64,000 nt of DNA. Source: Candidatus Nealsonbacteria bacterium. GTDB lineage: Bacteria > Patescibacteriota > Minisyncoccia > Minisyncoccales > MHMH01. A program made the translations under genes and the position numbers. The stretch covers positions 205,197-269,196 of the forward strand of contig JACPGX010000001.1 in assembly GCA_016188865.1 (NCBI GenBank). Reading direction: 5' to 3'. Positions 44,340 through 63,841 of this stretch are shown piece by piece. A model generated the notes under the pieces. It did no database searches and had not been told where the DNA came from. It saw nothing but the letters and a program-made list of their open reading frames with translations. Each line of letters begins with the position of its first letter. Position 1 is the stretch's first letter.

Positions 44340-44364
44340 ATGTAACGGGTCGTACCCGTTACAT
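44340..44364. repeat. Hairpin atgtaacggg-tcgta-cccgttacat (copy 2 of 2, perfect)
   Basis: Abuts the stop codon of the dehydrogenase gene. Confidence 0.8.
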
Positions 44365-46604: not shown

Positions 46605-46606
46605 TT

Positions 46607-47746
46607 TTAACTCCTCCAGCGAATCATTCGAGGATTGTCTGATTTAAGAGCGTCTTCGATGTCTTCAACAATGTGCTCTGGTCTGATATCTTTGCCGCCC
46701 ATGCCGCGGATATAGTTAAAAATGGGAATATTTGAATTATACATAGCTGATTCAATCTCTTGGGCAAAAATTCCTTTGGCTCCATAACTCATCGACCTGT
46801 CAAAAACCGCAATTTTCTTACCCTTAGACAGCCAATATCTTAAAGCTGTTGAGGGAAATGGCCTAAACAAACGAAGCTTTAACAGGCCAACCCTATCGCC
46901 GTACAAATCAACCGCCTCTTTGGCAATGGAAGCAGTAATGCCTGCTGCCACTAAAATTAATTCCTGTTTTGGTTGAATCTTGTAGGGCATTACCAGACGA
47001 TAATTTCTGCCAAAAGATTTATTGAATGCAACCATTACTTGCTTGATTATTTTCGGAGCTGACCGCATTGCTTCAAAAAGCCTCTGGCTATGAACCGGCG
47101 TGCGCGAAGAGCCACTGAAAACATAAGGGTCATCCGGATTCAAGGGCAAGAGAGTATTTACGGGCGGTAAAAATCCGTCAATTGCTTCCTGACTAGGAAT
47201 ATCGATTATTTCCGATAAATGCGAAAGAATAAATCCTTCATAGCAGACCATCGCCGGGATTTTTACAGTTTCAGTTATTTTAAAAGCCTGCAAAACAGTA
47301 TCAAAAACTTCCTGAACGTCTTCGCAATATAATTGAATCCAGCCGGTGTCTCTTTGCGACAAACTATCCTGAAAATCAGGCCAAATATTCCAAGGCAAAC
47401 CTAGAGAACGATTGGCTACGGCTAAAACAACGGACGCTCTTTCTTTAGCTGCCGAATGCATAGACTCGCTCATTAAAGTCAAACCGTGCGAGCTGGTAGC
47501 GGTCATAACTCTCAGTCCGAGAAGGGCAGCTCCAACGCAAGCTTCCATTGCCGCATGCTCATTATACATCCAGCGGGTTTGCGACCCGCTCTCTCCGAGA
47601 AACTCTATGAGTTTTTCAACCGCTCCCGTACTTGGAGTAATGCAGTAATTCGGTGAAGCTTGGACTCGGGCAGCAAAACCAGCCAAAGCAACAGCGGTAT
47701 TGCCGTCTAAAAGCATTTTTTTACCGAGCATTTCACTCGCCTTCAT
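46607..47746 (-). CDS. 2-oxoacid:ferredoxin oxidoreductase alpha subunit, second OFOR
   Basis: GNTAVALAG..ITPST. Start set to MKASEM, preceded by GGAGGAAGAAA. Confidence 0.88.
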   Translation of the reverse strand: MKASEMLGKKMLLDGNTAVALAGFAARVQASPNYCITPSTGAVEKLIEFLGESGSQTRWMYNEHAAMEACVGAALLGLRVMTATSSHGLTLMSESMHSAAKERASVVLAVANRSLGLPWNIWPDFQDSLSQRDTGWIQLYCEDVQEVFDTVLQAFKITETVKIPAMVCYEGFILSHLSEIIDIPSQEAIDGFLPPVNTLLPLNPDDPYVFSGSSRTPVHSQRLFEAMRSAPKIIKQVMVAFNKSFGRNYRLVMPYKIQPKQELILVAAGITASIAKEAVDLYGDRVGLLKLRLFRPFPSTALRYWLSKGKKIAVFDRSMSYGAKGIFAQEIESAMYNSNIPIFNYIRGMGGKDIRPEHIVEDIEDALKSDNPRMIRWRS

Positions 47747-49244: not shown

Positions 49245-49245
49245 C

Positions 49246-49806
49246 TTACGCCTCCTTTAAAGGTTGAGCCAGCTCATAAGCTTCCTTGGTCGCCTCAATG
49301 TTTTCTTTTTTATATGCCGGAATTTTTTCTTGAATAATCTCTATTAAATCAGCGAGACTAAAAAGATTGGTCATTTTAGCAAAGGCTCCCAGCATGATGG
49401 TATTTAACCTATTCAAGTTATGATATCTGGCAATGGCTGAAGCATTAAATGCCACTACTCTGTAGCCGGGGTATAAACGAGATAAATCTTGAGATGTCTT
49501 GCGGCTGTTAACAATCAAACAACCCGAAGGCTTCAAATTATCTTTCAAATCCCTGGTCTTTAAAAGATCTGCTCCTAAAACTATGAAATAGTCGGCTTGC
49601 TTTATTTGGCACTTCAATCGTATGGGTTTTGAATCAGATCTGACGAAGCCTTCGACCGGTTGACCAATTCTTTCTGAACCAAAAAAGGGGAAACACTGAA
49701 GGCTGTATTCTTTATCACCTAACGCCCTAAAAAGAGCCTCGGCTAAAATTTCTGAAGCTAACCTAGTGCCTTTTCCGCCGCGCCCAAAAATCGTTATTTC
49801 TATCAT
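49246..49806 (-). CDS. 2-oxoacid:ferredoxin oxidoreductase gamma subunit, second OFOR
   Basis: IFGRGGKGTRLASEILA. Confidence 0.85.
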   Translation of the reverse strand: MIEITIFGRGGKGTRLASEILAEALFRALGDKEYSLQCFPFFGSERIGQPVEGFVRSDSKPIRLKCQIKQADYFIVLGADLLKTRDLKDNLKPSGCLIVNSRKTSQDLSRLYPGYRVVAFNASAIARYHNLNRLNTIMLGAFAKMTNLFSLADLIEIIQEKIPAYKKENIEATKEAYELAQPLKEA

Positions 49807-49851
49807 TTATCAAAGACCTCCTTATTCAATTAACAAAGGACTCATCTTTTC

Positions 49852-50576: not shown

Positions 50577-50607
50577 AAAACTGACGAGAACCGTTCTCGT
50601 CAGTTTT
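50577..50607. repeat. REP-3 hairpin, 3'-flank copy (aaaactgacgagaac-c-gttctcgtcagtttt)
   Basis: Ends one base before the RAYT-3 stop codon. Preceded by a partial duplicate, ctgacgaaaa. Confidence 0.9.
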
Positions 50608-51333
50608 TTATTCGATGGCAACACGTTGAGAATCAGCTAATTCTTTTTTGAACTGAAGCCAATCGTTAACGAATCTTTGCCCTTCGCCCGCTCCGCCGAC
50701 TGTTTCAAATAAAAACTCTCTGCTGGTTACTGAAGGAAAATTCCTCTTGCCTAAATAGTCAGAATAACTTGACCATCGGTAATTTTCTAAAAATTCTATT
50801 ATTTCTTGCAATTTCCTGCCGCTAATTCCCCTTTCCTTCCAATTCTGAACTAAAATTGCCACTGGGTTTGTATGAATATAAACGAAAACTGTTATTAATT
50901 GTTTATCATCTTTAACGTGGACTATTTTATATTTTCCCTGAAACAGGTGGCCACTTCTTTTATATTTTTTATTATAATATCCGCCGTATCCCGCCCCAAT
51001 TTTTCTCATAAACTTGCTTATTCCTCCATTTCTTAACTGTCTTACCAGCAGATGCGCGTGATTCGGCATCAAACAAAACGCTAAAATCTCCAATAAACAT
51101 TCCCTGCCCGTATGTCTTTTATACGAACTATCTAAACTGACGAGAACGGTTCTCGTCAGTTTTTGTTCTTGACGATAGTATGAAGAAGTAGGTTTTTCAT
51201 CATTGAATTCAAATAAATCATGAATCATTCTAAAATAATCTTTTTGATCTTTGAAAAGCTTTAACCCTTCTACGGCTCTAATAACGATGTGATAAATTTC
51301 GCCGTTTACTAATGGTGGTCGTTTTATTGGCAT
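50608..51333 (-). CDS. REP-associated tyrosine transposase-like protein (IS200/Y1 HUH family), paralog 3
   Basis: GEIYHIVIRA, FCLMPNHAHLLV, VYIHTNP. Confidence 0.85.
   Translation of the reverse strand: MPIKRPPLVNGEIYHIVIRAVEGLKLFKDQKDYFRMIHDLFEFNDEKPTSSYYRQEQKLTRTVLVSLDSSYKRHTGRECLLEILAFCLMPNHAHLLVRQLRNGGISKFMRKIGAGYGGYYNKKYKRSGHLFQGKYKIVHVKDDKQLITVFVYIHTNPVAILVQNWKERGISGRKLQEIIEFLENYRWSSYSDYLGKRNFPSVTSREFLFETVGGAGEGQRFVNDWLQFKKELADSQRVAIE
51134..51162. repeat. REP-3 hairpin, internal in-frame copy (centre g)
   Basis: aaactgacgagaac-g-gttctcgtcagttt, translated KLTRTVLVSL. Confidence 0.9.
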
Positions 51334-51364
51334 AAAACTGACGAGAACCGTTCTCGTCAGTTTT
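51334..51364. repeat. REP-3 hairpin, 5'-flank copy
   Basis: Starts at the base next to the ATG (51331-33), leaving no room for an SD sequence. Confidence 0.9.
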
Positions 51365-51401
51365 ATTATAACGGAATAAATTTAAATGAAAAGCCCTGAG
51401 C

Positions 51402-52733
51402 TTAGCTCGGGGCTTTTGTTGCTTTTGCCAAAGCTTTTTCAAACTTGGCTACAATTTTATCTATATCATCTTTAGTTACAATTAATGGAGGCAGAAAACG
51501 GATAATGGGATTCCTTTGAGCGTGACCGGCAGCCAAAGGAAGAATGCCTTGCTCCACACATTCTTGAAGCACCGCGTTTCTCGAGGCAGGATTCGGTCCG
51601 CCCGATTCATCAACAAATTCTACTCCAACCATCAGCCCCATCCCCCGCACATCTCCAATAAAATGATTCTTAATTCCTTTCAACTTCTCAATAAAATATG
51701 CGCCATTTTCTGCAGCTCTCTTAATCAATTTTTCTTCTTCGAGTACTTCAAGGGTTGCTTTCGCAGCTGCCCAGCCAAGCGGCCCTCCGCCAAATGTGGT
51801 TGAATGTCGACCGGCTCGGGAAAAATCCCAATCCCGCGGAAAAACAATAGCTCCAATGGGAACGCCCGAACCAAGCTTCTTGGCTAAACAAATGATATCG
51901 GGTATTGCGGCGAAATGTTCAATCGCAAACATCTTGCCAGTTCTGCCCAAGCCAGTTTGCACTTCATCAGCGACTAAAGCCCAGTCATATTTCTGGCAAA
52001 GACGGTGAAGATCGTGTATTGCTAAGAGACTGGGTACGACGAATCCGCCCTCTCCCTGAATCGGCTCTATAATCACCCCGTTTATTTCGTCAGGATCACA
52101 AAATCGACCGAGATACTCTTGCTCAATAAAACGAATGCAGAGTTGGGCGCAATCTTCCGGCTTTTTCTCGTAAGCGCAATGCCGACAATCAGGATATGGC
52201 AAATGAATCACATCAAGAGCTTTGGGAAAATCTCTCTTATGCAATGATTTACTGGAAGCCACATCCAGCGCATAGCCGAATCTGCCGTGAAAGGCGCCGA
52301 GAAAACTGATAAATTTCTTTCGCTGCGGCCTGCGGTCAATTAAAAGTTTTATTGCAGCATTATTCGCTTCACCGCCCGAGGAGCAAAAATAAACTCGCCA
52401 ATCTCTTTCAGGAAAACTATTATGAGTTATTCTCGCCAATTTCTCAGCTGCCTCAACTTGGGAAGAATTGTAAACATCGGTGCCTATGCAGGCCATTAAC
52501 TTATCTGCTTGCTGTTTTACCGCTTCCACAACTTTAGGATGGCAATGCCCGATGTCAGCGATGCTTACTTGGGTAAAACAATCAATAAATTTATTGCCGT
52601 CGGCATCCCAGACATAAATGCCTTTTCCCCTTTCAACTGTTACGGGAAAATTTATATCGTGAGTAGTTGTCGCCAAAACTTCCTTATGCCTTGCAATCAA
52701 CCCCAATGTTTTAGAGCCGGGAATCTCTTTCAT
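51402..52733 (-). CDS. Class III PLP aminotransferase (4-aminobutyrate/omega-amino-acid type)
   Basis: DEVQTGLGRTGKMFA. Confidence 0.88.
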   Translation of the reverse strand: MKEIPGSKTLGLIARHKEVLATTTHDINFPVTVERGKGIYVWDADGNKFIDCFTQVSIADIGHCHPKVVEAVKQQADKLMACIGTDVYNSSQVEAAEKLARITHNSFPERDWRVYFCSSGGEANNAAIKLLIDRRPQRKKFISFLGAFHGRFGYALDVASSKSLHKRDFPKALDVIHLPYPDCRHCAYEKKPEDCAQLCIRFIEQEYLGRFCDPDEINGVIIEPIQGEGGFVVPSLLAIHDLHRLCQKYDWALVADEVQTGLGRTGKMFAIEHFAAIPDIICLAKKLGSGVPIGAIVFPRDWDFSRAGRHSTTFGGGPLGWAAAKATLEVLEEEKLIKRAAENGAYFIEKLKGIKNHFIGDVRGMGLMVGVEFVDESGGPNPASRNAVLQECVEQGILPLAAGHAQRNPIIRFLPPLIVTKDDIDKIVAKFEKALAKATKAPS

Positions 52734-52846
52734 CTTTTACCTCCTGTTGCATTGTCAAATAACTCATTTTATCTAAACACGCTAACAAAAAACTTGCAAG
52801 AAAAACAAAAAGAGCCCTTCGATAAACTCAGGACTCTTTTTTATTT

Positions 52847-53983
52847 TTACTTTAAAAATTTTCTTGAAAGAACTTCCAGCTGGACTTCGGAGGCGCCTTC
52901 ATAAAGAGTTAAAGCTCTGGCGTCGCGGAACATTCTCTCAACCGGAGTTTCATCCATGTAGCCCATGCCGCCGTGAATCTGTAAAGCGTCATAAGTTATT
53001 TTCTGAACCATCTCGGTGGCAAACCATTTGGCTCTGGCTGCAGCCAATTTGACATCATGGCCTTGGTCTTTTTGCCAGGCAGCATACCAGGTAAGCCAAC
53101 GGCTGGCTTCAATTTGGGCTTCCATTTTAGCTAATTTATGCTGGCAATCTTGAAGATCAATCAATCTCTTGCCAAACATCTGACGATTTCTGGCGTAGTT
53201 TACGGCTTCTTCAAAAGCGCCTTGAGCTATACCTACGGCTTGGGCCGCGATATTGATTCTGCCGCCATTTAAAGTCTGCATAGCCACTTTCCAGCCGTCG
53301 CCTTCCTGGCCAAGCATATTGGCATGGCTGACTTGGCAGTCAGTCAAAACTATCGGGGAAGTCGGCGAACAGTGAAGCCCCATTTTCTTTTCAATTTTCG
53401 GCACTGAAAATCCCGGAGTGGAAGTTTCCACGATGAAAGCGGAAAGCCCATGATGAGGATGATCGCTGGTTCTGGCTATTAAAACGCAAACTTTCGCTTT
53501 AGCGACATTGGTAATGAATTGCTTGGTACCATTAATCACCCAACCATTATCATTTCTTACAGCCCGAGTTTTGATTCTCGTCACATCAGAGCCGGCATCC
53601 GGCTCTGTTAAAGCATAACATCCCAATGCCTTGCCTTGAGCCAAAGAAGCAAGATATTTCTTTTTTTGATCTTCATTGCCCCACTCCAAAATGGGAGCTC
53701 CGGATAAGGAATTATTGGCTGACATAATCAAAGCAAGCGAAGCCCAAACTCTGGCCAACTCTTCTTCGGCAATGGCATAAGCTAAAATATCCGAGCCCAT
53801 GCCGCCGTACTGCTCTGGAACAAATATACCCATAAAGCCCATTTCGCCGAGTTTTTCAACAAGCTCTTTGGGAAATTTTCCTTTTTCTTCAAATTCTTTA
53901 ATCCTTGGCCTGACTTCTTTTTCGGCAAATTCTCTCATCAAGTTGCGGATACCCGCATGCTCTTCCGACAACCGAAAATCCAT
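52847..53983 (-). CDS. Acyl-CoA dehydrogenase
   Basis: YALTEPDAGSD, and QIHGGMGY..YEGASEVQ. Confidence 0.93.
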   Translation of the reverse strand: MDFRLSEEHAGIRNLMREFAEKEVRPRIKEFEEKGKFPKELVEKLGEMGFMGIFVPEQYGGMGSDILAYAIAEEELARVWASLALIMSANNSLSGAPILEWGNEDQKKKYLASLAQGKALGCYALTEPDAGSDVTRIKTRAVRNDNGWVINGTKQFITNVAKAKVCVLIARTSDHPHHGLSAFIVETSTPGFSVPKIEKKMGLHCSPTSPIVLTDCQVSHANMLGQEGDGWKVAMQTLNGGRINIAAQAVGIAQGAFEEAVNYARNRQMFGKRLIDLQDCQHKLAKMEAQIEASRWLTWYAAWQKDQGHDVKLAAARAKWFATEMVQKITYDALQIHGGMGYMDETPVERMFRDARALTLYEGASEVQLEVLSRKFLK

Positions 53984-53994
53984 TTCCGCCTCCC

Positions 53995-55914
53995 TTATAA
54001 AGATTTCTCTATCAATTCCAGCAAGTCAATCACTGAAATCTCTTCGCCCTGTAGCATTTGCAGACACCAGGGACAGCTGACCGCCGCTATATTGGCTTCC
54101 GTTTCCTTAGCATCTTTAAGGCGCAGTTGGTTAACTCTTTTTTGAGGATCTTCCTCTTGCCACATTCTGCCGCCGCCTCCGCCGCAGCATAAACTTTGTT
54201 TTTTGGAACGCTTCATTTCAACTATTTTTTCAGCGCAAACGGCTTTTAGAATTTCTCGGGGAGCTTCAAAAATACCATTATAACGGCCAAGATAGCAAGA
54301 ATCATGATAGGTTATTTTACCAGATATTTTCTTGCTTACTTTAAGTTTTCCTTCTTTGATGAGCTTGGCTATGAATTCGGTGTAATGATAAACTGCGAAA
54401 TCAGCGCCAAAATCAGGATATTCATTTTTTAAAGTATTAAAGCAGTGAGGGCAAGCGGTAATAATTTCTTTCACGCCGTAACGATTCAAAATTTCAATAT
54501 TCTTTTTGGCCAATTCCTGAAATAAATATTCGTTGCCCATTCTTCTTGCCGGGTCCCCGCAGCAAAGCTCTTCAGAGCCAAGTATGCCGAAGTTAACCCC
54601 GGCTTTTTCCAATATTTTAACCAGAGAAACAGCTGCTTTGGTATTCTGCTCATTCAAAGCCGCGGTGCAGCCGACCCAGTAAAGAACATCTATTGCTCTA
54701 TCTGAAGAAAGCGTTTTGACCTTTAAATCCTTTGCCCAATCAGTTCTTGAAAGATTGGTTCCCCTCCAAGGATGTCCCCGGGCCTCAATGCTTTCCAAGG
54801 CTCGCATAGCTGAATCGGGCAACTGGGATTTTTCAAGCACTAAATTGCGCCGCATTTCCACAATTTTATCAATATGGGTATTTAAAACAGGACACTGCTC
54901 TTGGCAGGCGCGGCAGGTAGTGCAAGACCAGAGATCATCTTCCTTAATTGCTCCGCCAATTAAATTATCGTTATTTTGATTCAGCAGAGGCTTTTTTAGA
55001 TTTTGAATCATTTCTTTTGGGTTAAGCGATTTTCCGCTCAAATAGGCCGGACAAGCTTCCTGACAGCGGCCGCAGACAACGCAGGCGTAAAGATCGAGCA
55101 GCTGCTTTTGGCTGAAATCTTCAATCTTTGCCGCGCCGAAAGTTTCCGTATTTTCCAAATCAAGAGTTTCCAGGGCCCCTTTGGGCCGTGAACTTTTCAG
55201 AAAAATATTGAGAGGGCCGGCTAAAATGTGAAGATATCTGGAATAAGCTATGAAAACCAAAACGAACAAAACCGTCAGCCAATGCGCCCAGAAAAAAGTC
55301 ATGTTGGCTATTGCCAGCGCGGACAAGCTGAAATCCTTAAAAAAATAACTTAGGGCTGAACTAAGCGGCGGTAAAAGAGTGCTTTCGCTGGTAGCTTCTT
55401 TCAGTAAATGCGTTACGGGATGCAGAAAAACTGTGACTAAGATAATCAATGCCTCAAAAGTCTGCTCTCCTTTAAGCCGAGGCGGTCGCACAACATATCT
55501 TCGCAGAATTCCCCAAAGGGCTGCCAGCATGATAAAAGGAGCTGCCATGTCCATCACCCAAGAGTAGTAAAAGAAAAGCTTGGTGTTTTCCATTGCTCCT
55601 GACAAACCGAAGCCTGCTCCGATGATGATATATAGAAAATAATATCCGACAAAAATCAGAAATCCCCATGCCATAAAAATATGGCCGAGGCCGGCTCTGT
55701 CTTTCAGAGATATGGACTTTAACTGGCGCCATTGCCCGACAAGATAAGCTAAAACAAGCAATATCCTTTTGAGCGCGCTATTCTTTAAGTTATGATTTTC
55801 TTTCTTACCCCGGCTCAAAAAACCGTAGAGCCGGTATATTCTGAAAAAGAAAAGGCCGAAAGCTATCAGGGTCAAACCCCAGAAAAAAATATAGAACATC
55901 GAATCCCTCCGCAT
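53995..55914 (-). CDS. Membrane FeS oxidoreductase (HdrD/GlpC-like: TM domain + 2x[4Fe-4S] + two CCG domains)
   Basis: About 5 N-terminal TM segments, CVVCGRCQEACP, CTTCRACQEQCP, and CCG motifs. Confidence 0.8.
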   Translation of the reverse strand: MRRDSMFYIFFWGLTLIAFGLFFFRIYRLYGFLSRGKKENHNLKNSALKRILLVLAYLVGQWRQLKSISLKDRAGLGHIFMAWGFLIFVGYYFLYIIIGAGFGLSGAMENTKLFFYYSWVMDMAAPFIMLAALWGILRRYVVRPPRLKGEQTFEALIILVTVFLHPVTHLLKEATSESTLLPPLSSALSYFFKDFSLSALAIANMTFFWAHWLTVLFVLVFIAYSRYLHILAGPLNIFLKSSRPKGALETLDLENTETFGAAKIEDFSQKQLLDLYACVVCGRCQEACPAYLSGKSLNPKEMIQNLKKPLLNQNNDNLIGGAIKEDDLWSCTTCRACQEQCPVLNTHIDKIVEMRRNLVLEKSQLPDSAMRALESIEARGHPWRGTNLSRTDWAKDLKVKTLSSDRAIDVLYWVGCTAALNEQNTKAAVSLVKILEKAGVNFGILGSEELCCGDPARRMGNEYLFQELAKKNIEILNRYGVKEIITACPHCFNTLKNEYPDFGADFAVYHYTEFIAKLIKEGKLKVSKKISGKITYHDSCYLGRYNGIFEAPREILKAVCAEKIVEMKRSKKQSLCCGGGGGRMWQEEDPQKRVNQLRLKDAKETEANIAAVSCPWCLQMLQGEEISVIDLLELIEKSL

Positions 55915-55966
55915 GTATTTTCAAAGTACCGCATCTAATGACTTCTAACACGAAGAAAAAACTCGG

Positions 55967-55996
55967 TCAACAAAAAAGGACGCTAGGCGTCCTTTG
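55967..55996 (-). terminator. Terminator/-35 cassette, copy 1 (caacaaaaaaggacgctaggcgtcctttg)
   Basis: On the minus strand this reads AAAGGACGC-CUA-GCGUCCUUUUUU, followed directly by GTTGAC. Confidence 0.75.
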
Positions 55997-56004
55997 GTTA
56001 TTGT

Positions 56005-56163
56005 TCATCTTTTAACCGGAACGGGCACTTTTTCGGGCATTGGCGTTTTTTCCGGTACGGGGCTCGAAGGCTCCGGTTTGGTTCTGGGAACTCTTCTGGG
56101 AATTCTTACCGGTTCTTCTGTAGGAATAGTTTCCCTACGGTTATTTTCTGCGGAATCAAGCAT
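56005..56163 (-). CDS. Pro-rich 52-aa ORF (not in the supplied ORF track)
   Basis: AGGAGG lies 6 nt upstream of ATG 56161-63. The ATG overlaps the upstream stop (AATGCTTGA). Terminator lies 10 nt downstream. Confidence 0.4.
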   Translation of the reverse strand: MLDSAENNRRETIPTEEPVRIPRRVPRTKPEPSSPVPEKTPMPEKVPVPVKR

Positions 56164-57517
56164 TTTCTTCCTCCTTTTTTTGCTGATAACGCTTTTGGTA
56201 TTCTACGCTTTGGTCTGGAAAATTTTTGTAATCTATGAAAGGCTCTCTTTCTTGGTCTGGAGGCAAAAATTCAGAACAAATCTTTTTGCCTTCCAAAACT
56301 AAACGGATATCAGTGGCCTTATCAACAACCAATCTTTGCACTTCGCGAATAAACTTATTGCCCAGAGGAACATTACCTTCATCGGCTTCCCTTTGAAGAA
56401 TAACTGCCTCAATTTTCCTAAGGTAGGGCAAAAGCCGAGACCAGGAATTGTCTATTGCATATAAATCATTTAACCATTCTTTGTCAGGGTAAAGGCATTC
56501 TTCTAAAAGATACTTAAGGGATTCTTTTCTGGCCAAATTGTATTTTTCCTGTCCGGGAATCTCATAAATAGCTTCGGGATTAAGCAGGGAGTTAAACTTT
56601 CTTAAAATTTGTACCAATTCCGCTTCAAAATTTTCGTACAGCGAAATGATAGTTGAATGAACTGGCGTCACGTTAAGCGAGCTTCTTTCTGGCTGGGGAT
56701 ATTTCCAGTAAGCAGTGGTTAAAAGCAAGCCCAAATTAAGATATTGCAAAAAATAAATCAATTGAGCCAAGTTTCCCTGGCTTATTTCCGGAGATACATG
56801 GAAAAGATAATCAATCCGATGCCGAGCTATATTAATTTCATTCAATGCTTTAACTTCTGCGCCCCTGATGACTAAGCCGTAAGAAGCTCCATGGTCTCTT
56901 TTGGGCACATCTTTAAATGTTGTAAAATGATCGAGGTTAACAGAAATAATAAACAAAGCTAAGGCAATAAACTTGGCGCGATGCTGATATTTATTAAAAC
57001 CAGTATCAAAACCAACTGATATTTGTATTTCGCCTGCCTTAATGAGCCTTGCTTTTATTTGGCTGGCCAATGCTTGGGAATCGACTGTCGGCTGAAAACA
57101 GTGCTTTTCTCTTCCTTGGCCGGGATAAATTTTAGCCCCTAAAGTCACAAAAGATAAAAGCTGCCGGCTATTATTTAGAGAAGAAAATATGATTGAACCT
57201 GGCCAGTAAGGCGAATTAGCTAAAGCTTGGGCTGCTGCCTCACGGACACCAGGGTCTGGATCATATTTTGAGGCCTTCTTTAATGACGGGATTGCTTCCA
57301 GAGAGCCGATTACTCCCAAGGCCTCGGCTGCTTTCTCGCGGACAAAATAATACTGATCTGTTTCCAAAACTTCGATTAAAGCTTTGGTTGCTTCCGAAGA
57401 GCCGATTACTCCCAAGGCCTTAGCTGCTTCGTAACGGCTAAAATTATCTCCCTTGTTTAATTGATGCAAAAGACTTTTAATACTGGCCTTACTCGCCTTT
57501 TCTTTCTTATTTTCCAT
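56156..57517 (-). CDS. HEAT-repeat (PBS-lyase type) protein with ~330-aa unknown C-terminal domain
   Basis: Repeated AAxALGVIGSxEA units. Start trimmed to MENKKEK, because the longer ORF runs through its own promoter. Confidence 0.65.
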   Translation of the reverse strand: MENKKEKASKASIKSLLHQLNKGDNFSRYEAAKALGVIGSSEATKALIEVLETDQYYFVREKAAEALGVIGSLEAIPSLKKASKYDPDPGVREAAAQALANSPYWPGSIIFSSLNNSRQLLSFVTLGAKIYPGQGREKHCFQPTVDSQALASQIKARLIKAGEIQISVGFDTGFNKYQHRAKFIALALFIISVNLDHFTTFKDVPKRDHGASYGLVIRGAEVKALNEINIARHRIDYLFHVSPEISQGNLAQLIYFLQYLNLGLLLTTAYWKYPQPERSSLNVTPVHSTIISLYENFEAELVQILRKFNSLLNPEAIYEIPGQEKYNLARKESLKYLLEECLYPDKEWLNDLYAIDNSWSRLLPYLRKIEAVILQREADEGNVPLGNKFIREVQRLVVDKATDIRLVLEGKKICSEFLPPDQEREPFIDYKNFPDQSVEYQKRYQQKKEEENA

Positions 57518-57557
57518 CGCCGTCATTCCTCCACAAATTTCAATGTACTCTAATAAC

Positions 57558-57586
57558 TTAATAGCACTAAGGGAAAACCCGGTCAA
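57558..57586 (-). promoter_or_regulatory. Promoter TTGACC-17-TATTAA
   Basis: The -35 box directly follows the REP-3-like hairpin. Confidence 0.6.
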
Positions 57587-57590
57587 CAAA

Positions 57591-57621
57591 AAAACTGACG
57601 AGAACCATTCTCGGCAGTTTT
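57591..57621. repeat. REP-3 hairpin, solo degenerate copy (two mismatches) acting as a terminator
   Basis: aaaactgacgagaac-c-attctcggcagtttt. Confidence 0.8.
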
Positions 57622-57670
57622 AATTATTTATAAAGGCACTCTAAAATTCATTTAAGGAGGGTTGCTACTG

Positions 57671-57958
57671 CTACCACCCAGAGTTGCTGCTGCTACTACC
57701 CCAAAAATAAACGTCACTAAGTTTTATTATTACGAAGGATATAAGACTGCTAAAAAAAGAAATGCCTCCGACGAATATTATGATATTACTTATGTTATGG
57801 AGAAGTTCGCTCTGGAACATGAACCTTAATACTGCGCCCACACCAATCAGGAATACATTTGAAAATATCAAGATATAAAATATCTTATCTATCTTCTTGT
57901 TCATCCTCTTATAGTTCTCGTAAATTTGCCGTGATTCTTCATCAATTTCATGGGCCAT
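57671..57958 (-). CDS. Small 2-TM membrane protein (95 aa)
   Basis: AAGGAGGTG RBS. Promoter TTGACA-17-TAAGAT at 58004-58032. Confidence 0.6.
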   Translation of the reverse strand: MAHEIDEESRQIYENYKRMNKKIDKIFYILIFSNVFLIGVGAVLRFMFQSELLHNISNIIIFVGGISFFSSLISFVIIKLSDVYFWGSSSSNSGW

Positions 57959-58041
57959 ATTATATTCACCTCCTTTTTAATGTGCCGCATAATTATAGAG
58001 TACATCTTAGTTCAACGCAAAAAATCTGTCAAGACATCGTA

Positions 58042-58087
58042 TTACGAGACCCGGACTCGTAAAAAATTACGAGTCCGGATCTCGTAA
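58042..58087. repeat. Inverted REP doublet (REPIN-like): ttacgag-acccgga-ctcgtaa / ttacgag-tccggat-ctcgtaa
   Basis: The two hairpins are reverse complements of each other apart from one base. Their stems equal the REP-2 stem. Confidence 0.8.
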
Positions 58088-58104
58088 AACTAGCGGAAAC
58101 CGAA

Positions 58105-58134
58105 ACAACAAAAAAGGACGCTAGGCGTCCTTTG
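58105..58134 (-). terminator. Terminator cassette, copy 2
   Basis: Hairpin identical to copy 1. The -35 part is degenerate (TTGTTG). Confidence 0.7.
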
Positions 58135-58185
58135 ATTGTTTATTCTACTGATCGAGAGTATTTGGCGGCCTTTTGTTTTTACCCT

Positions 58186-58500
58186 TCAGTCAACCAAGGC
58201 TCTTCGGCTTCGATGGCGTCCCAATAAATCGTACAATTTCTGAATTGGTTTTGAAAAAAATCGGAACCCCCTATCTCTTAATTCAATCTCTCTCCCCTCA
58301 TTCTCAACGCGCAGGCACAAATCCGGGGAGGTAGATACCCAGCCACAAATACTTTCACCATGGTAGTATCTCAACGACAAACCATAACCTTCAAATTCGG
58401 TATGCCACACATCAGACCACGCGTCACCCCCTCGAAGCCACTGAAGTTCTCCGCTCCTAGTTTTTTCAATGACCATCTTCAGTAGTCTTGAATTATTCAT
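58186..58500 (-). CDS. Hypothetical 104-aa protein
   Basis: GAGGAGGAG RBS. Promoter TTGACA-17-TATATT at 58536-58564. Confidence 0.55.
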   Translation of the reverse strand: MNNSRLLKMVIEKTRSGELQWLRGGDAWSDVWHTEFEGYGLSLRYYHGESICGWVSTSPDLCLRVENEGREIELRDRGFRFFSKPIQKLYDLLGRHRSRRALVD

Positions 58501-58577
58501 TCTCTCCTCCTCTCATTTTTTTTACACCATATGACAATATATACCCATTCATTGAATATGTCAAATCGAATGGAATC

Positions 58578-58607
58578 GTCAACAAAAAAGGACGCTAAGC
58601 GTCCTTT
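58578..58607 (-). terminator. Terminator/-35 cassette, copy 3 (loop taa); contains the etfA stop codon
   Basis: The 5' arm encodes the EtfA C-terminus ..TKDA. GTTGAC follows. Confidence 0.75.
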
Positions 58608-59605
58608 GTGAGTTCTTTTAATTTTTCAATAAATGCCGGTAAAACTTCCTGCCACCGACCGACTATTCCGAAATCAGCTTCTTTAAAGATATTGGCTTCC
58701 GGATCGCTATTAATTGCCACAATAACTTTGGCTCCGGAGCAGCCAGCCAAATGCTGACTCGACCCGGAAACTCCGACAACGATGTAAAGATCGGGGACGA
58801 CAATTTTGCCGGTAAGGCCGATCTGCAGACTAGCAGGCATCCAACCCTGATCGCAAGGAGGCCGACTGGCGCCCACTGCTCCTTTTAGCACCCTAGCTAA
58901 TTCCTCTAATTTCTTAAAACCTTCCGGCCCGCCTATGCCCCGGCCGCCGCAAACAATCACTTTAGCTGCTTCTAGTTTAACTCCGGAGTATTCTTCGATT
59001 TTCTTGCCAATGACCTTTGTTTTTAATTCAGCTTGTAGTACGGCCGGATCTATTATAATGCATTCTATCACCTGACCTGTTCTCTTTTCATCTCTTGGCA
59101 AAGGAGAAAATGCTTTCTGCCTGACTGTGGCCATTTGCGGAAAGAAATCCGAAGCAAAGACTGCCCTGGCACTGCCGCCGTAAACCGGCTTTGTCATCAA
59201 AAGATTTTTTTTAGCAGAATCAATGCTTAGCTCGAGGCAATCGGTCACTAAGCCAACTCTCAACCTGAAAGCTAATCTGGGGGCTAAGTCTCTGCCCATA
59301 GCCGTCTGGCCAAAAAGCAAAATATTTGGAAGCCCCATGCTCACCATTTGTTCCAGTGCATACAGATAAGTTTCTGCCTGATAATTATCGAGCAAAGAAT
59401 TCTGGACAAGGTAAACTCTATCTGCTCCCAAAGCAATAACTTCTTGAGAAAAATCGCTTGCTCTGCTGCCAAATAAAACACAGGAAACTTTTTCTTTAAG
59501 GCTATCGGCAAGCAATCTAGCGCATGCTAAAAGTTCTGCGGTAACTGAATTTAATTTTCCTTCGCTAACTTCTCCTAAAACCATTATTCCTTTATATTCT
59601 CTCAT
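58595..59605 (-). CDS. etfA: Electron transfer flavoprotein alpha subunit
   Basis: C-terminal FAD-binding region GVSGSSQHLAG..INSDP. Confidence 0.93.
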   Translation of the reverse strand: MREYKGIMVLGEVSEGKLNSVTAELLACARLLADSLKEKVSCVLFGSRASDFSQEVIALGADRVYLVQNSLLDNYQAETYLYALEQMVSMGLPNILLFGQTAMGRDLAPRLAFRLRVGLVTDCLELSIDSAKKNLLMTKPVYGGSARAVFASDFFPQMATVRQKAFSPLPRDEKRTGQVIECIIIDPAVLQAELKTKVIGKKIEEYSGVKLEAAKVIVCGGRGIGGPEGFKKLEELARVLKGAVGASRPPCDQGWMPASLQIGLTGKIVVPDLYIVVGVSGSSQHLAGCSGAKVIVAINSDPEANIFKEADFGIVGRWQEVLPAFIEKLKELTKDA

Positions 59606-59615
59606 AACTGCCTCC

Positions 59616-60395
59616 TCAAACCGCCTTTGCTTCGCGCAGTTTTAAAGCAAGCTTTGCGCCGGCTTCGGCCGGATTGTCAGCCTTCACCATTTGGCACTGT
59701 TTTTCCTTGATTGGCTGAAAGACTTTAAGGAGTTTAGAATGCGGAACGTCCAAGCTAATATCGGTTTTATTCCAAATAGTGGGCGTTTTCTTTTTGGCGG
59801 CCAGCACTCCCTTAACGCTGGCATACCTCGGATCTCCCAGTTCATTGGTTACGGTAATTAAAGCGGGCAAAATAGTTTCAATGGTTTCGTAACCGTCGGG
59901 AAGCAGGCGCTCTATCCTGACCTTAGTGTCAACTATTTCAATTTGTTTGGCTAAAGTTACTGCAGGAATTCCCAAAAATTCGGCAATGCCTATGCCGACT
60001 TGGCCGTTATCCCAATCAGCTGCCTGCCTGCCGCAAAGAATTAAATCGTATCTGCCGATTTTTCTAATAGCTGCTGCCAAAGCATGAGCCGCAGCCCAGC
60101 TATCAAGCCCATCAAAAGCCTCGTCTTCCAAAAGAATTAATTCGTCAGCTCCCATGGCTAAAGGTTTTTTAACCACTTCTCTGACAAAATTATTTCCTAA
60201 GCTCAAAATGGTAATTTTGCCTGATAATTTATCTTTAATGCGTAAAGCCGCTTCAACAGCGTGCATGTCAAAGGGACTGATAACCGAAGCTGTTCCGGAC
60301 GGCGTAATTATTTTTTTACCGGTTTCGTCTATCTTTAAATTCGAAGGCGGAATTTCAGGGTCAATTATCTGCTTGCAGCAAACAATTATATCCAT
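59616..60395 (-). CDS. etfB: Electron transfer flavoprotein beta subunit
   Basis: IVCCKQ..DP and LILCGRQAADWDNGQVG. Confidence 0.93.
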   Translation of the reverse strand: MDIIVCCKQIIDPEIPPSNLKIDETGKKIITPSGTASVISPFDMHAVEAALRIKDKLSGKITILSLGNNFVREVVKKPLAMGADELILLEDEAFDGLDSWAAAHALAAAIRKIGRYDLILCGRQAADWDNGQVGIGIAEFLGIPAVTLAKQIEIVDTKVRIERLLPDGYETIETILPALITVTNELGDPRYASVKGVLAAKKKTPTIWNKTDISLDVPHSKLLKVFQPIKEKQCQMVKADNPAEAGAKLALKLREAKAV

Positions 60396-61120
60396 TAAAA
60401 CTTTACCTCCTTTATGCCTTGCATCAATTCGGGAAAACCATCGCCATTGAGCGAATTGACTTTATAAAGCTTTTTGCTTTGGCCAAAGTGCGTTGTCAAA
60501 TCTTGAAAAGCCTGATCTGCTTTCGGCGAATCGGATCTGTTCAAAACAATTATATCGGCTGTTTCAATAACGCCGCCCTTAAACAGCTGAATCTCATCTC
60601 CGATGTCGGGCGAGGTTACGTAAATCAAGGCCCTCACTTGCTCCCTGAATCCTAAATTTTCCTGGCCGGAACCGACGGTTTCAACAATGATAACGTCTTT
60701 TCCCATAGCACCGAAAATCTTGATCAGGTAGGAAATTTCCGGACTCGCTCCCTTAAAATTCTGGCGCTGGGTCAAACTCCTGATAAAAACTTGTTCTTTG
60801 CCGGCGTGCTCCTGCATCCTGATTCTGTCGCCCAAAAAAGAGCCGTCAGAAATAGACACCGGGTCGCAGCATAAAATGCCGATGCTTTTTTGCTCTTTCA
60901 AAAAATAATGAATTAATTTATTTATCAAAGTGCTTTTGCCCACGCCGCCAGAACCAGTAACTCCAATCAAAAGAGTCTTATCTGGCAAAGTAAGCTTGGA
61001 AACCATTCTCTTGGCTGTTTTGTTGTCCCATTGAATTTTGCTCATTAATCTACTGGCCGCCAAAGCCTCTCCATTTTTCGTTCTTTCAAGCAAATCTTTG
61101 ACAGAGCCTCTTTTTGCCAT
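60395..61120 (-). CDS. G3E-family P-loop GTPase, MeaB/ArgK-like (short, 241 aa)
   Basis: GVTGSGGVGKST, DPVS..GSFLGDRIRM, ETVGSGQ, NRSD. TAATG overlap with etfB. Start set to MAKRGS after AAAGGAG. Confidence 0.8.
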   Translation of the reverse strand: MAKRGSVKDLLERTKNGEALAASRLMSKIQWDNKTAKRMVSKLTLPDKTLLIGVTGSGGVGKSTLINKLIHYFLKEQKSIGILCCDPVSISDGSFLGDRIRMQEHAGKEQVFIRSLTQRQNFKGASPEISYLIKIFGAMGKDVIIVETVGSGQENLGFREQVRALIYVTSPDIGDEIQLFKGGVIETADIIVLNRSDSPKADQAFQDLTTHFGQSKKLYKVNSLNGDGFPELMQGIKEVKF

Positions 61121-61330
61121 TTTGTTCTCCTTTGCGGTTATTTTCAAAGTTCTCTAAAATTTTTAACACAACTTCGAGCAAAAGAAAAGCCCCGGATTTC
61201 TCCAGAGCTTTATGAAACTAAAAAATGATTTATTGGCCTAAAATTTCCTGGCCCATCTTTGAAAATTTAGAGGAGGCCGTTATGCGCTGCCAGAAGATGG
61301 AAAGTTTTTCTTGAGCTTAACCAGTAAACA

Positions 61331-61357
61331 AAAAGCGATCTCTTGCGAGATCGCTTT
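61331..61357 (-). terminator. Terminator of the acetoacetyl-CoA synthetase gene
   Basis: aaagcgatctc/gagatcgcttt followed by a U-run. Confidence 0.75.
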
Positions 61358-61363
61358 AAATTT

Positions 61364-63316
61364 TCAATCTTCCTGAAGCTCGAGAATGTTTTTGTAAAAC
61401 TCCAGAGCTTCCGGATTAGCAATGGCATTTAAATTCTTAATGGGTTTGCCGTGAATGGCGTTCTTAACTGCTGATGCCACCTTTTTCCCGTTAAAAGTAT
61501 AGGGAATGTCGGGAACTGCAATAACTTTTGCCGGAACATGGCGCGGCGTAGCGTTTTCCCTGATTCTCAACTTAATCTTATTAACCAGCTCTTCTGTCAA
61601 CTCAATGCCTTCTTTCATTTTAACAAAAAGAATAACCCTATTATCTCCCTGCCAATCCTGACCGACAGCTATGCTATCTGAAACTTCTTGGATTGTTTCC
61701 ATCTGGCGGTAAATCTCGGCTGTGCCGATTCTCACTCCAGCCGGCTTTAGGGTATCATCCGACCTGCCGTAAATTACCATACTACCGGTTTTAGTAATTT
61801 TTGCGATATCGCCATGGCACCAAATACCGGGGTATTTCTCAAAATAGGCCTCTTGATACTTTTGATTATTTTGATCGTTCCAGAAAAAAAGAGGCGCTGA
61901 AGGAAAGGGAGCGGTGCAAACCAGCTCACCTTGCTGTTCTGCGATTGAATTTCCCTCATCATCAAAAACTTCCACTTTCATGCCCAAAGCGCGGCACTGG
62001 AGTTCGCCCGAATAAACCGGCAAAAGAGAATTTCCCAGAGCAAAACATCCGTTAAGATCAGTGCCGCCGGAAATGGAAGCCAATAAAACGTCTTTTTTGA
62101 TATCGCGATAAACATACTCAAAGCTTGCTTCAGAAAGCGGGGAACCGGTAGATAAAATAGTCTGCAAACTTTGCAAATTGTATTGCCAGCCGGGTTTTGC
62201 TCCTCTCTTTTCCAATTCGGAAAGATATTTGGCGCTTGTTCCAAAAATCGTTATTTTCAAATCTTCCGCCAGCTGAAAGAGAGCGCCCGTATCGGGATAA
62301 AACGGCGAACCGTCGAAAAGAACAATGGTTGCTCCGAGCGCCAAAGAACTGACCAGCCAATTCCACATCATCCAGCCGCAAGTGGTGTAATAAAAGATGA
62401 CATCGTCTGCTTTTACATCGGTGTGGAGCTTTAACTCTTTGAAATGATTAATTAAAACGCCCGACCCCTGAACTATGCATTTCGGCAAGCCGGTTGTGCC
62501 CGAGGTATACATAATGTAAACCGGATGGTCAAAAGTAACCTGCTCAAAAACGCATTCGGCATTTCTATCTTGGGAAATAAAATCGTAAAAATTTACAGCT
62601 GAAGGCAGTCTGCTCACATCGGAATTTTTTTCTGCGTAAGGAACGACTATTATCTTTTCTAAAGACGGCAGGTTTTTTATTATTTCTGAAACTTTTTCCA
62701 AAGAGTTGAATTTTTTGCCGTTGTAGTAATAACCATCGGCGCAAAAAAGCATTTTCGGAAAAATTTGGGAAAAACGGTCCAAAGCTCCTTTAATTCCGAA
62801 ATCCGGAGAACAGCTTGACCAAACAGCTCCGATACTGGTTGTTGCCAGCATGGCAACTACGGTTTCTGGCATGTTAGGCAAAAAGCCTGCCACTCTATCG
62901 CCCTTTTGAATCCCCGACTCCCGCATTGATTTTGCCAGCCTTGCCGTTAATCCATAAAGCTCGTTATAGTTAACCTTTCTTATTTCTTGTCCCTCGCCTT
63001 TAAAAATTAAAGCTGGTTTTTGACCGCGAAAGCATAACAGATTTTCGGCGAAATTCAATTCCGCCCCCTCAAACCATTTCACTCCCGGCATCTGATTTTC
63101 ATCGCTAACTACTCTATGATAAAGCTTCGATGACTTGATATCGCAAAAATCCCAGACAGCCGACCAAAACTCTGAAATATTTTCTATTGACCATTGATAC
63201 AGCTCTTCATAGTTATGGATTTTTTTCCCGCGAGTCTTATCTAGGAAATCCGTGAATTTGGTTAAATTAGCATTTTGTTTTCTTTTTCGGGACGGACTCC
63301 AAAGCTTTTTTGCCAT
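61364..63316 (-). CDS. Acetoacetyl-CoA synthetase (acetoacetate--CoA ligase)
   Basis: N-terminus LWSPS..FW..VWDF and AMP-binding motif YTSGTTGLPK. Length 650 aa. Confidence 0.88.
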   Translation of the reverse strand: MAKKLWSPSRKRKQNANLTKFTDFLDKTRGKKIHNYEELYQWSIENISEFWSAVWDFCDIKSSKLYHRVVSDENQMPGVKWFEGAELNFAENLLCFRGQKPALIFKGEGQEIRKVNYNELYGLTARLAKSMRESGIQKGDRVAGFLPNMPETVVAMLATTSIGAVWSSCSPDFGIKGALDRFSQIFPKMLFCADGYYYNGKKFNSLEKVSEIIKNLPSLEKIIVVPYAEKNSDVSRLPSAVNFYDFISQDRNAECVFEQVTFDHPVYIMYTSGTTGLPKCIVQGSGVLINHFKELKLHTDVKADDVIFYYTTCGWMMWNWLVSSLALGATIVLFDGSPFYPDTGALFQLAEDLKITIFGTSAKYLSELEKRGAKPGWQYNLQSLQTILSTGSPLSEASFEYVYRDIKKDVLLASISGGTDLNGCFALGNSLLPVYSGELQCRALGMKVEVFDDEGNSIAEQQGELVCTAPFPSAPLFFWNDQNNQKYQEAYFEKYPGIWCHGDIAKITKTGSMVIYGRSDDTLKPAGVRIGTAEIYRQMETIQEVSDSIAVGQDWQGDNRVILFVKMKEGIELTEELVNKIKLRIRENATPRHVPAKVIAVPDIPYTFNGKKVASAVKNAIHGKPIKNLNAIANPEALEFYKNILELQED

Positions 63317-63317
63317 T

Positions 63318-63749
63318 CTAACCTCCTTTTGGATAAGCTGCGCAAGTGCCTTTGAGAAATTCTTCGGGAGAAGCGCCTTCTTTTACGGCGCACTCCATCA
63401 AAACCCAAGCTGCAAAATCAATGACAATGGTGGCCAAATTCCTCAAATGAACGCAGCCGGTTTCGCCGCCTAAAATATCTGAAACATCTTTTAATATGCC
63501 TTTTTTAATGACCAGCCCTTTTAATCTTTTAACTTTAACTAAAACTGTCGAACAAATATCGTGGGGAACTTTTTGCATTTCAGCTTTTGCTCTTATGATT
63601 TTACGTTCTTTGGGCTCTATCTCCAAACTAATGTGAATAAGATGGAAGCCGTCTAAAAGCTCTGATTCAACCAGCAAGTTGCCATTTTTCAATCTGTAAG
63701 CCCGCGGGCTGATGGCCCTCTGGGCAATCAATTCTTTGCCATTAGTCAT
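63318..63749 (-). CDS. DUF2889-like protein
   Basis: 143 aa containing GGETGCVHLRNL. Family assignment is from memory. Confidence 0.45.
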   Translation of the reverse strand: MTNGKELIAQRAISPRAYRLKNGNLLVESELLDGFHLIHISLEIEPKERKIIRAKAEMQKVPHDICSTVLVKVKRLKGLVIKKGILKDVSDILGGETGCVHLRNLATIVIDFAAWVLMECAVKEGASPEEFLKGTCAAYPKGG

Positions 63750-63792
63750 TTCTTCCTCCTTATTTAACTGTAAAAGTTCTCACAACATTCTT

Positions 63793-63831: not shown

Positions 63832-63841
63832 ATTTTTTTAT

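Follow-up and report, generated by a model that had tools for sequence, protein, structure and literature searches.

Bacteria of the candidate phyla radiation (CPR) are usually described as fermenters without respiratory components. Among membrane enzymes, the EMO/EtfD family has been proven biochemically and structurally to be an electron-transfer flavoprotein (ETF):(methyl)menaquinone oxidoreductase, and its members consist of a NarI-like five-helix heme-b domain, an HdrC-like domain with two cubane iron–sulfur (FeS) clusters and an HdrB-like domain with two CCG-type non-cubane clusters (bioRxiv 10.64898/2026.08.18.745454; EMBO J 2026, PMC13083937). Within the CPR, Castelle et al. 2017 (PMC5220378) found acyl-CoA dehydrogenases (ACADs) and ETF co-located with a Syntrophomonas-type membrane FeS oxidoreductase in a Parcubacterium, ‘Candidatus Parcunitrobacter nitroensis’. 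They called beta-oxidation previously unreported in the CPR, read the cluster as transferring electrons from ETF to the membrane and argued against its recent acquisition from non-CPR organisms. Here we analysed a stretch of 64,000 nucleotides (the window) from a contig labelled Candidatus Nealsonbacteria, in which the right third (44.3–64 kb, all genes on the minus strand; Table 1) encodes an EMO/EtfD-type protein together with an ACAD, EtfAB, a 2-oxoacid oxidoreductase and an acetoacetate-CoA ligase. We think it probable that this block is a catabolic electron-transfer module, acquired long ago by a CPR bacterium of the Nealsonbacteria lineage, most likely from Chloroflexota, and since adapted to its host.

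The closest solved relative of the 639-aa EMO (634 aa in the NCBI-called product, which begins at Met6) is PDB 9OJN, the EtfD/EMO of M. smegmatis, which aligns in two stretches spanning residues 16–622 (E 3e-103). All five hydrophobic helices lie in residues 5–233, with none downstream, and residues 16–309 align to the membrane domain of 9OJN. The heme histidines are H87, H233 and H251 in the enzyme of Syntrophus aciditrophicus (SaEMO) and H223 in that of M. smegmatis (MsEMO) (bioRxiv 10.64898/2026.08.18.745454). We found that His78, His211 and His229 of the window protein align with heme ligands and are invariant in 120/120 homologues; His211 is aligned to MsEMO His223, and its spacing of 18 residues from His229 is the same as that of SaEMO H233–H251. 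The HdrC-like domain, which is matched by Pfam Fer4_8, Fer4_10 and Fer4_9, keeps all 8 cysteines of two cubane motifs CxxCxxCxxxCP (C278/281/284/288 and C331/334/337/341). Similarly, all 10 CCG cysteines (C416/451/452/488/491 and C540/576/577/614/617) are kept in the HdrB-like domain, which matches Pfam CCG in 2 stretches (128 bits). Judged by its sequence, the protein is thus a full member of the EMO/EtfD family. An earlier note on this DNA had taken it for the type of enzyme that passes ETF electrons to the membrane quinone pool, and the 9OJN match and the complete set of cofactor ligands bear this out.

The ACAD gene starts 12 nt after the EMO stop codon; 2.7 kb upstream, the same strand carries etfBA. 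Among solved structures, C. difficile Bcd (5OL2_C, 360 bits) is the best match of the ACAD, followed by the Bcd proteins of A. fermentans and M. elsdenii and by short-chain acyl-CoA dehydrogenases (SCADs) (320–360 bits), whereas isovaleryl-, isobutyryl- and glutaryl-CoA dehydrogenases score ~100–140 bits lower (220 bits for the isovaleryl and isobutyryl enzymes). The context of the catalytic base is YEG at residue 361/378, and all NCBIfam equivalogs fall under their cut-offs. These scores assign the enzyme to the butyryl-CoA/SCAD type.

For the ETF, overall similarity and motifs had to be read separately. The top PDB match of EtfA is 7koe_B (233 bits), and the PDB scores of EtfB favour bifurcating proteins (CarD, 175 bits versus 96 bits for human EtfB). 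Bifurcation has three signatures in EtfB, namely RxFxG at the NADH site, DGDTAQVGP for recognition of the bifurcating FAD (b-FAD) and an SPT anchor (PMC9232219). None of them is kept here: where CarD and A. fermentans EtfB read DGDTAQVG(S/P), the window protein reads DWDNGQVGI; RxFxG is replaced by EAFDG, in which the Arg has become Glu; and the SPT anchor is absent at the position where CarD and A. fermentans EtfB have (A/G)SPTQV. The same substitutions occur in eight Chloroflexota-type relatives, with the consensus DWDAGQVG, and therefore define a subfamily. Because the three signatures are not conserved, we read EtfAB as a non-bifurcating, plain one-FAD carrier, an assignment made at the level of sequence motifs. 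A conserved b-FAD-contacting Arg of EtfA, considered as a further discriminator, was dropped because it is also found in non-bifurcating ETFs.

The EMO, EtfB and TopA proteins of the window each have a 100% match labelled Candidatus Nealsonbacteria, all on a single 271,219-bp contig. Dozens of proteins are related to TopA at 70–83% identity, and every named one is from Nealsonbacteria (81%, 71%), Parcubacteria, Patescibacteria or Pacebacteria. No ribosomal-protein or 16S gene lies in the window, and on the basis of the TopA relatives and the NCBI label we assign the host to the CPR, in the Nealsonbacteria lineage, a possibility that the earlier note had raised. By contrast, the relatives of the redox proteins are foreign. 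After its 100% match, the next relatives of EMO are two sequences from Logan assemblies (69% and 64%), and then come matches at 57% or less, of which the named ones are Dehalococcoidales/Chloroflexota and one Thermodesulfovibrionales. The named EtfB matches, at 59–66%, are all Chloroflexi/Dehalococcoidia, and the best 120 matches of EMO or EtfB contained no CPR-labelled relative. When EMO was compared with 185,579 GTDB species representatives, the best 80 loci were all Dehalococcoidia, Chloroflexota or SAR202, with neither the source genome nor any Patescibacteria among them, and a metagenome scan gave nothing above ~50% best-segment identity; both scans were seeded by exact peptide patterns and missed known EMO relatives at 55–57%, which makes such absences weak evidence. 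In two relatives of etfBA, one of them labelled Chloroflexota, the genes stand in the conserved context prfA-prmC-etfBA-fusA-gatCA and therefore look native there. A foreign origin of EMO and EtfB in this host is thus likely. Transfer of the whole cluster en bloc was considered and is unsupported, as EMO lies within 10 kb of detectable ACAD/ETF homologues in only one of the 80 GTDB loci (L053) and in none of the other 79.

Although the relatives of these proteins are foreign, the composition of the block resembles that of its host. The block had been described as clearly more GC-rich than the rest; its GC content is indeed higher, but only modestly, by ~3 points (42.3% for 44301–64000 and 42.8% for 51402–63749 versus 39.4% for 1–44300; Mann–Whitney U test on per-gene GC, p=0.0004). 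The excess is located in second codon positions (GC2, +4.3 points, reflecting amino-acid composition) and third codon positions (GC3, +3.7 points), and two left-part genes, ftsH (44.6%) and ftsZ (45.7%), have a GC content equal to that of the block. Codon fractions within amino acids correlate between left and right at r=0.984, including idiosyncratic preferences for TGC and GGC, and composition-normalised tetranucleotide vectors correlate at r 0.948. Pieces of 6.6 kb from the right part reach 0.918+/-0.007 against the left, compared with 0.933+/-0.010 within the left, whereas Chloroflexota loci of similar GC reach only 0.49–0.63. Hence the GC difference is a weak one, the expected compositional island was not borne out by tetranucleotide or codon usage, and these signatures match the rest of the window. 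Nor did we find an integrase, direct repeats or a flanking tRNA at the block; the only tRNA of the window is at 32.7 kb.

Independent Logan assemblies reproduce 44.34–50.6 kb and the region from 51.34 kb past the right end of the window, where one contig (L001) extends ~1.2 kb beyond the DUF2889 gene, and another contig (L091) spans the repeat junction at 50.6 kb. We also found a contig (L005) from an unrelated run, SRR22388340, with 43% GC and a tetranucleotide correlation of 0.93–0.94 to the window. Its gene order is that of the window: EMO (68% identity), ACAD (57%), a PALP gene, the oxidoreductase gamma subunit VorG (75%) and the delta subunit. L005 shares the linkage of EMO, ACAD and the oxidoreductase (VOR), and the acquisition is therefore older than the divergence of the two lineages, whose proteins now differ by 25–43%. 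Early acquisition fits the complete amelioration of the block, which we regard, on compositional and comparative grounds, as an old, ameliorated acquisition and as neither a chimera nor a recent island.

In the catabolic module that we propose, either the Leu/Phe-type dehydrogenase or the class III aminotransferase would remove the amino group from amino acids, and the resulting 2-oxoacids would be converted to short-chain acyl-CoAs by oxidative decarboxylation by the NAD(P)-linked 2-oxoacid oxidoreductase. The butyryl-CoA-type ACAD would then oxidise acyl-CoA to enoyl-CoA and hand two electrons to the non-bifurcating EtfAB, which would dock on the cytoplasmic HdrB-like domain of EMO/EtfD. From there, electrons could pass along four FeS clusters, two of them non-cubane and two cubane, to reach heme b and finally a membrane carrier of the (methyl)menaquinone type. 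Acetoacetate could enter the same short-chain CoA pool through the acetoacetate-CoA ligase. What the analysis itself establishes are the protein identities, the intact cofactor ligands, a CPR host, the foreign affinities and a composition like that of the host; which substrates are used, which way electrons run, whether heme and quinone are present and what the MeaB-like GTPase and the DUF2889 protein do is inferred.

Several points weigh against this proposal. Of beta-oxidation, the open reading frames (ORFs) scanned in the 64-kb window encode the dehydrogenase step alone, without a hydratase, 3-hydroxyacyl-CoA dehydrogenase or thiolase, and the suggestion of beta-oxidation as such does not hold for the window. 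We also recognised no gene for quinone synthesis (men, mqn), heme synthesis or a terminal reductase in the window, and no enzyme that would re-oxidise or reduce the carrier. CPR bacteria are generally reported to be without the remaining beta-oxidation, quinone, heme and terminal-reductase functions, so that EMO could also run in reverse. Equivalog cut-offs are not reached by the aminotransferase, the amino-acid dehydrogenase or the oxidoreductase, which makes their substrates guesses. As to origin, the taxon labels are drawn from the named fraction of the matches, outside which the two closest EMO relatives fall, and the direction of transfer is taken from the distribution of relatives and not from a rooted tree. 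Moreover, the Logan contigs from the same project stop in repeated hairpins at ~44.33 and ~51.35 kb, such that the joins at these two points rest, indirectly, on the original assembly, composition and the sharing of repeats.

The same enzymes could instead work in reverse as an electron sink (‘enoyl-CoA respiration’), with quinol or another membrane donor feeding electrons through EMO and ETF to the ACAD, which would reduce crotonyl-CoA, made from acetoacetate via acetoacetyl-CoA, to butyryl-CoA. The EMO and ETF of S. aciditrophicus are reported to run in this way on crotonate (bioRxiv 10.64898/2026.08.18.745454), the nearest relatives of the ACAD are butyryl-CoA dehydrogenases from butyrate fermenters, the block encodes a bona fide acetoacetate-CoA ligase, and a fermentative CPR cell would need electron sinks more than a respiratory chain. 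However, the window encodes no enzyme that would reduce quinone (neither membrane hydrogenase nor formate dehydrogenase) and lacks 3-hydroxybutyryl-CoA dehydrogenase and crotonase, and the adjoining operon for an amino-acid dehydrogenase and a 2-oxoacid oxidoreductase points to production of acyl-CoA for oxidation; we consider reverse operation rather unlikely, though a serious alternative. A bifurcating Bcd–EtfAB complex acting on NADH, ferredoxin and crotonyl-CoA, with EMO either unrelated or an alternative high-potential outlet (compare EtfABCX), seems decidedly improbable. It is true that EtfA, EtfB and ACAD are overall nearest to CarCDE, C. difficile and A. fermentans Bcd–EtfAB and T. maritima EtfABCX in the PDB, but all three EtfB motifs (PMC9232219) are altered, these substitutions are fixed in the Chloroflexota-type subfamily, and EtfA has no ferredoxin domain. 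For oxidation by the route that we propose, a more speculative and rather doubtful idea is that a CPR episymbiont without quinone or heme synthesis runs EMO with heme and a lipophilic carrier that it scavenges from the membrane of its host; the carrier would be menaquinone or, with a methanogen as host, methanophenazine. If true, such scavenging would couple oxidation of amino acids and short-chain acyl-CoAs in the CPR cell to the electron-transport chain of the host, as a metabolic ‘plug-in’ to the respiratory pool of the partner.

The ends of the Logan contigs at ~44.34 and ~51.34 kb, which fall exactly in hairpins, and the Chloroflexota affinity of the closest named EMO and EtfB homologues would also be expected if misassembly or misbinning had attached a piece of Chloroflexota DNA, the right third, to a CPR contig at these repeats. 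Against such a chimera stand the codon correlation and the tetranucleotide values given above, together with the low identity to any Chloroflexota protein (at most 57–66%) and the presence of another 2-oxoacid oxidoreductase in the left part itself. The repeats argue in the same direction: the transposase gene at 50.6 kb is a paralogue, 45–47% identical and of the same odd architecture, of two left-part genes at 162–929 and 26070–26783, its palindrome recurs at 57.6 kb, the hairpin at 44328–44364 resembles that at 37831–37867, and L091 spans the repeat at 50.6 kb. We regard a chimera as very improbable. Just as remote is a recently acquired island mobilised by the transposase and its palindromes. 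This reading would accommodate the GC excess, the transposase gene and palindromes within the block and the foreign relatives, but the block has no oligonucleotide or codon signature of its own, no insertion hallmarks (integrase, direct repeats or flanking tRNA) and no donor above 57–66% identity (69% to a relative that shares the signature of the host itself). In addition, systems of this transposase family are spread along the whole window, such transposases are not known to mobilise cargo, and the diverged relative L005 already has the linkage of EMO, ACAD and VOR.

Table 1. Transcription units and genes of the right third of the window
Feature	Coordinates	Strand	Evidence
Unit: DUF2889 + acetoacetate-CoA ligase	63749-61364	-	
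Unit: MeaB-like GTPase + EtfB + EtfA	61147-58595	-	
Unit: three small/HEAT-repeat genes	58500-56156	-	
Unit: membrane FeS protein + acyl-CoA dehydrogenase + class III aminotransferase	55914-51402	-	
Unit: RAYT-like gene + REPs	51364-50577	-	
Unit: 132-aa protein + four-gene 2-oxoacid oxidoreductase + Leu/Phe-type amino-acid dehydrogenase	50444-44364	-	
DUF2889 protein, first in its unit	63318..63749	-	Pfam PF11136, 61 bits (cut-off 25)
Acetoacetate-CoA ligase (acetoacetyl-CoA synthetase, AACS)	61364..63316	-	NCBIfam TIGR01217, 904 bits (cut-off 521), and NF002937, 938 bits (cut-off 639), both full length
Truncated MeaB-like G3E GTPase, 250 aa	60395..61147	-	Pfam MeaB, 154 bits, profile positions 18-200 of 273
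EtfB, Chloroflexota-type	59616..60395	-	Pfam ETF
EtfA, FAD-binding large subunit, no N-terminal ferredoxin domain	58595..59605	-	Pfam ETF + ETF_alpha
104-aa protein, 95-aa membrane protein, HEAT-repeat protein	56156..58500	-	HEAT_2, 62 bits
EMO/EtfD-type ETF:(methyl)menaquinone oxidoreductase, 639 aa	53995..55914	-	PDB 9OJN match, motifs
Short-chain (butyryl-CoA type) acyl-CoA dehydrogenase (ACAD)	52847..53983	-	Pfam ACAD N, M and C domains
Class III (omega-amino/ornithine/GABA-type) aminotransferase, last in its unit	51402..52733	-	Pfam Aminotran_3, 352 bits, E 4e-105; top NCBIfam NF004426, 459 bits, under cut-off 552
RAYT-like Y1 transposase gene	50608-51333 (element 50577..51364)	-	Pfam Y1_Tnp
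Four-gene 2-oxoacid oxidoreductase: gamma, GltD-like flavoprotein fused to delta ferredoxin, alpha, beta	45681..49806	-	POR; Pyr_redox_2 + Fer4_20 + Fer4; POR_N + PFOR_II; TPP_enzyme_C (Pfam)
Leu/Phe/Val/Trp-type amino-acid dehydrogenase	44364..45563	-	Pfam ELFV_dehydrog + ELFV_dehydrog_N; top NCBIfam tryptophan dehydrogenase ScyB, 301 bits, under cut-off 600

All of the genes that had been named for the block were recovered by Pfam and NCBIfam at their positions on the minus strand. Hairpins that resemble terminators divide the region into the units of Table 1, and GlmS is the next gene after the last of them. In the first unit, the DUF2889 gene ends 2 nt before the start of AACS, which is followed by two terminator-like hairpins (61357–61332 and 61211–61186). 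The stop codon of the MeaB-like gene overlaps the start of etfB, and a further terminator-like hairpin (58607–58587) overlaps the stop codon of etfA. The three genes between etfA and EMO, of which those for the 104-aa and 95-aa proteins have no significant family match, are separated by terminator or palindrome hairpins (58133–58113, 57591–57621 and 55995–55975) and are probably outside the pathway. A bidirectional terminator-like hairpin (51389–51417) stands at the end of the aminotransferase gene. We also noticed that a short, GC-rich hairpin with a T-run, AAAGGACGCCTAGCGTCCTTTTTT on the minus strand, is present in three near-identical copies (55975–55995, 58113–58133 and 58587–58607). These copies sit exactly at the ends of transcription units and, within the window, only in the acyl-CoA block; they are a repeated terminator or a REP-like family.

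The GTPase upstream of etfB carries intact G motifs (Walker A GSGGVGKST, DPVS, ETVGSGQ and NRSD) and is without the C-terminal third, the arm that forms the dimerisation region. Its score against TIGR00750 is 167 bits, below the cut-off of 241, and covers profile positions 1–192 of 300. There is no mutase gene near it in the window, an Rfam scan found no cobalamin or other riboswitch ahead of it (the sole match was the tRNA), and neither of the two relatives examined has a MeaB-like gene adjoining etfBA. A true MeaB, the chaperone of methylmalonyl-CoA mutase, was rejected on the sub-cut-off score, the missing C-terminal region and the lack of a mutase, and we call the protein only ‘MeaB-like’.

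The nearest NCBIfam models of the four-gene oxidoreductase are VOR/POR subunits and subunits of the NADH-dependent phenylglyoxylate dehydrogenase, all below cut-off. The gene at 47733–49244 (minus strand) joins a GltD/NfnB-like NAD(P)H flavoprotein to the delta ferredoxin (Fer4_20 and Pyr_redox_2 with a PorD-like C terminus). This fusion suggests a pyridine-nucleotide-linked enzyme of the phenylglyoxylate dehydrogenase (Pad) type and not a simple ferredoxin-dependent one. The left part of the window had been called housekeeping. This is not purely so, as a second, two-subunit 2-oxoacid:ferredoxin oxidoreductase (a gamma–alpha fusion plus beta) is encoded there at 37873–40418 on the minus strand, adjoining CofD/YvcK-like and GlmU-like genes.

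The transposase gene at 50.6 kb is of the RAYT (REP-associated tyrosine transposase) type, and the earlier note had described this gene and repetitive extragenic palindromes (REPs) as punctuating the block. We confirmed this, finding the palindrome AAACTGACGAGAACCGTTCTCGTCAGTTT at four sites: 50577–50607, 51133–51163 (inside the RAYT ORF), 51334–51364 and 57591–57621. Each of the three RAYT elements of the window (132–946, 26028–26807 and 50577–51364) is flanked by its own distinct perfect palindrome and has a third copy inside the ORF. The internal copy occupies the sole non-conserved linker of the protein (~aa 57–82), between the N-terminal IYHxxNRGVE strand and the HUH motif. The cognate hairpin thus seems to co-vary with each RAYT gene. 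A 50-nt composite palindrome, GAGGTCCGACCTCCC...GGGAGGTCGGACCTC, occurs twice, at 9026–9075 and 34376–34433, 25 kb apart and in intergenic or gene-end positions, and is another dispersed repeat family of this genome. Elsewhere in the left part, a NifU/IscU-type Fe-S scaffold gene (4156–5631, minus strand) matches the scaffold at aa 5–65 and 409–488 and intein-containing proteins in between, and appears to be interrupted by an intein-like insert. FtsZ (17443–18375, minus strand), encoded directly after ftsA, is a 310-aa protein with the TIGR00065 core and without the usual C-terminal linker and tail.

The ligands of EMO have stayed intact, and the gene has been kept with ETF and ACAD until the block was fully ameliorated, which implies purifying selection on a membrane redox function; the retention of EMO in the diverged relative L005 likewise points to selection. 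The locus is of interest because it implies that a lineage thought to possess neither heme nor quinone depends on both, and it raises the question of where these cofactors come from and how the carrier would be re-oxidised. Chloroflexota, which are frequent co-inhabitants of groundwater, are indicated as the likely source of the genes. The sequencing runs with the block (SRR121134xx) come from a study of groundwater in Northern California by He et al. 2021 (PMC7906910), whose main text does not mention the module. Recent EMO structures render the prediction experimentally tractable.

Compared with SaEMO and with EtfD of M. smegmatis and M. tuberculosis (Rv0338c), also known as FadF or the ‘DUF224 FeS oxidoreductase’ of the Swol_0698 type, the window protein likewise joins a five-helix NarI-like, an HdrC-like and an HdrB-like domain in one polypeptide and, as in those systems, its gene stands beside that of an ACAD and close to etfAB. 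At 639 or 634 aa, the window protein is shorter than SaEMO (706 aa) and MsEMO (1042 aa), and it is at most 57% identical to any named homologue. Its two CCG sites each have the full set of cysteines; by comparison, SaEMO has a [4Fe-5S] and MsEMO a [3Fe-4S] distal cluster. Unlike the hosts of those enzymes, the Nealsonbacteria lineage is not known to make menaquinone or heme. The ETF of S. aciditrophicus, which binds AMP and docks on EMO through EtfB, is likewise of the non-bifurcating kind. By contrast, the bifurcating Bcd–EtfAB, CarCDE and EtfABCX systems (PDB 5OL2, 4KPU, 6FAH and 7KOE), although highest in similarity among solved structures for ACAD, EtfA and EtfB, differ in that the window ETF is without the b-FAD and NADH motifs, the EtfA ferredoxin domain and EtfCX. 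The 2-oxoacid oxidoreductase resembles VOR/POR and the five-component PadEFGHI-type enzymes in having alpha, beta and gamma subunits, a GltD-like flavoprotein and a delta-type ferredoxin module, but the last two form a single 503-aa polypeptide here, and scores are under equivalog cut-offs.

With Chloroflexota (Dehalococcoidia-type) EtfBA and EMO, the window proteins share a subfamily signature, AADWD(A/N)GQVG without RxFxG and SPT in EtfB, whereas the grouping of genes into a MeaB-like–etfBA unit and an EMO–ACAD–aminotransferase unit is the CPR genome’s own. The earlier note had suggested that such a capability would be unusual and probably horizontally acquired in a CPR bacterium; a foreign origin is likely, but the case is not unprecedented (Castelle et al. 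2017, PMC5220378). Compared by description, ‘Candidatus Parcunitrobacter nitroensis’ also combines a short/branched-chain-type ACAD, EtfAB and a membrane FeS oxidoreductase in a CPR genome (PMC5220378). It has a complete, co-located beta-oxidation set and respiratory complexes, whereas the window has the dehydrogenase step only and, unlike Parcunitrobacter, links it to an amino-acid dehydrogenase, a 2-oxoacid oxidoreductase and an acetoacetate-CoA ligase. The enzyme family, the logic of the pathway and its occurrence in the CPR were therefore already known; the locus described here is a second, independent and differently organised CPR case, in the Nealsonbacteria lineage, with a defined membrane-enzyme family and an affinity to Chloroflexota.

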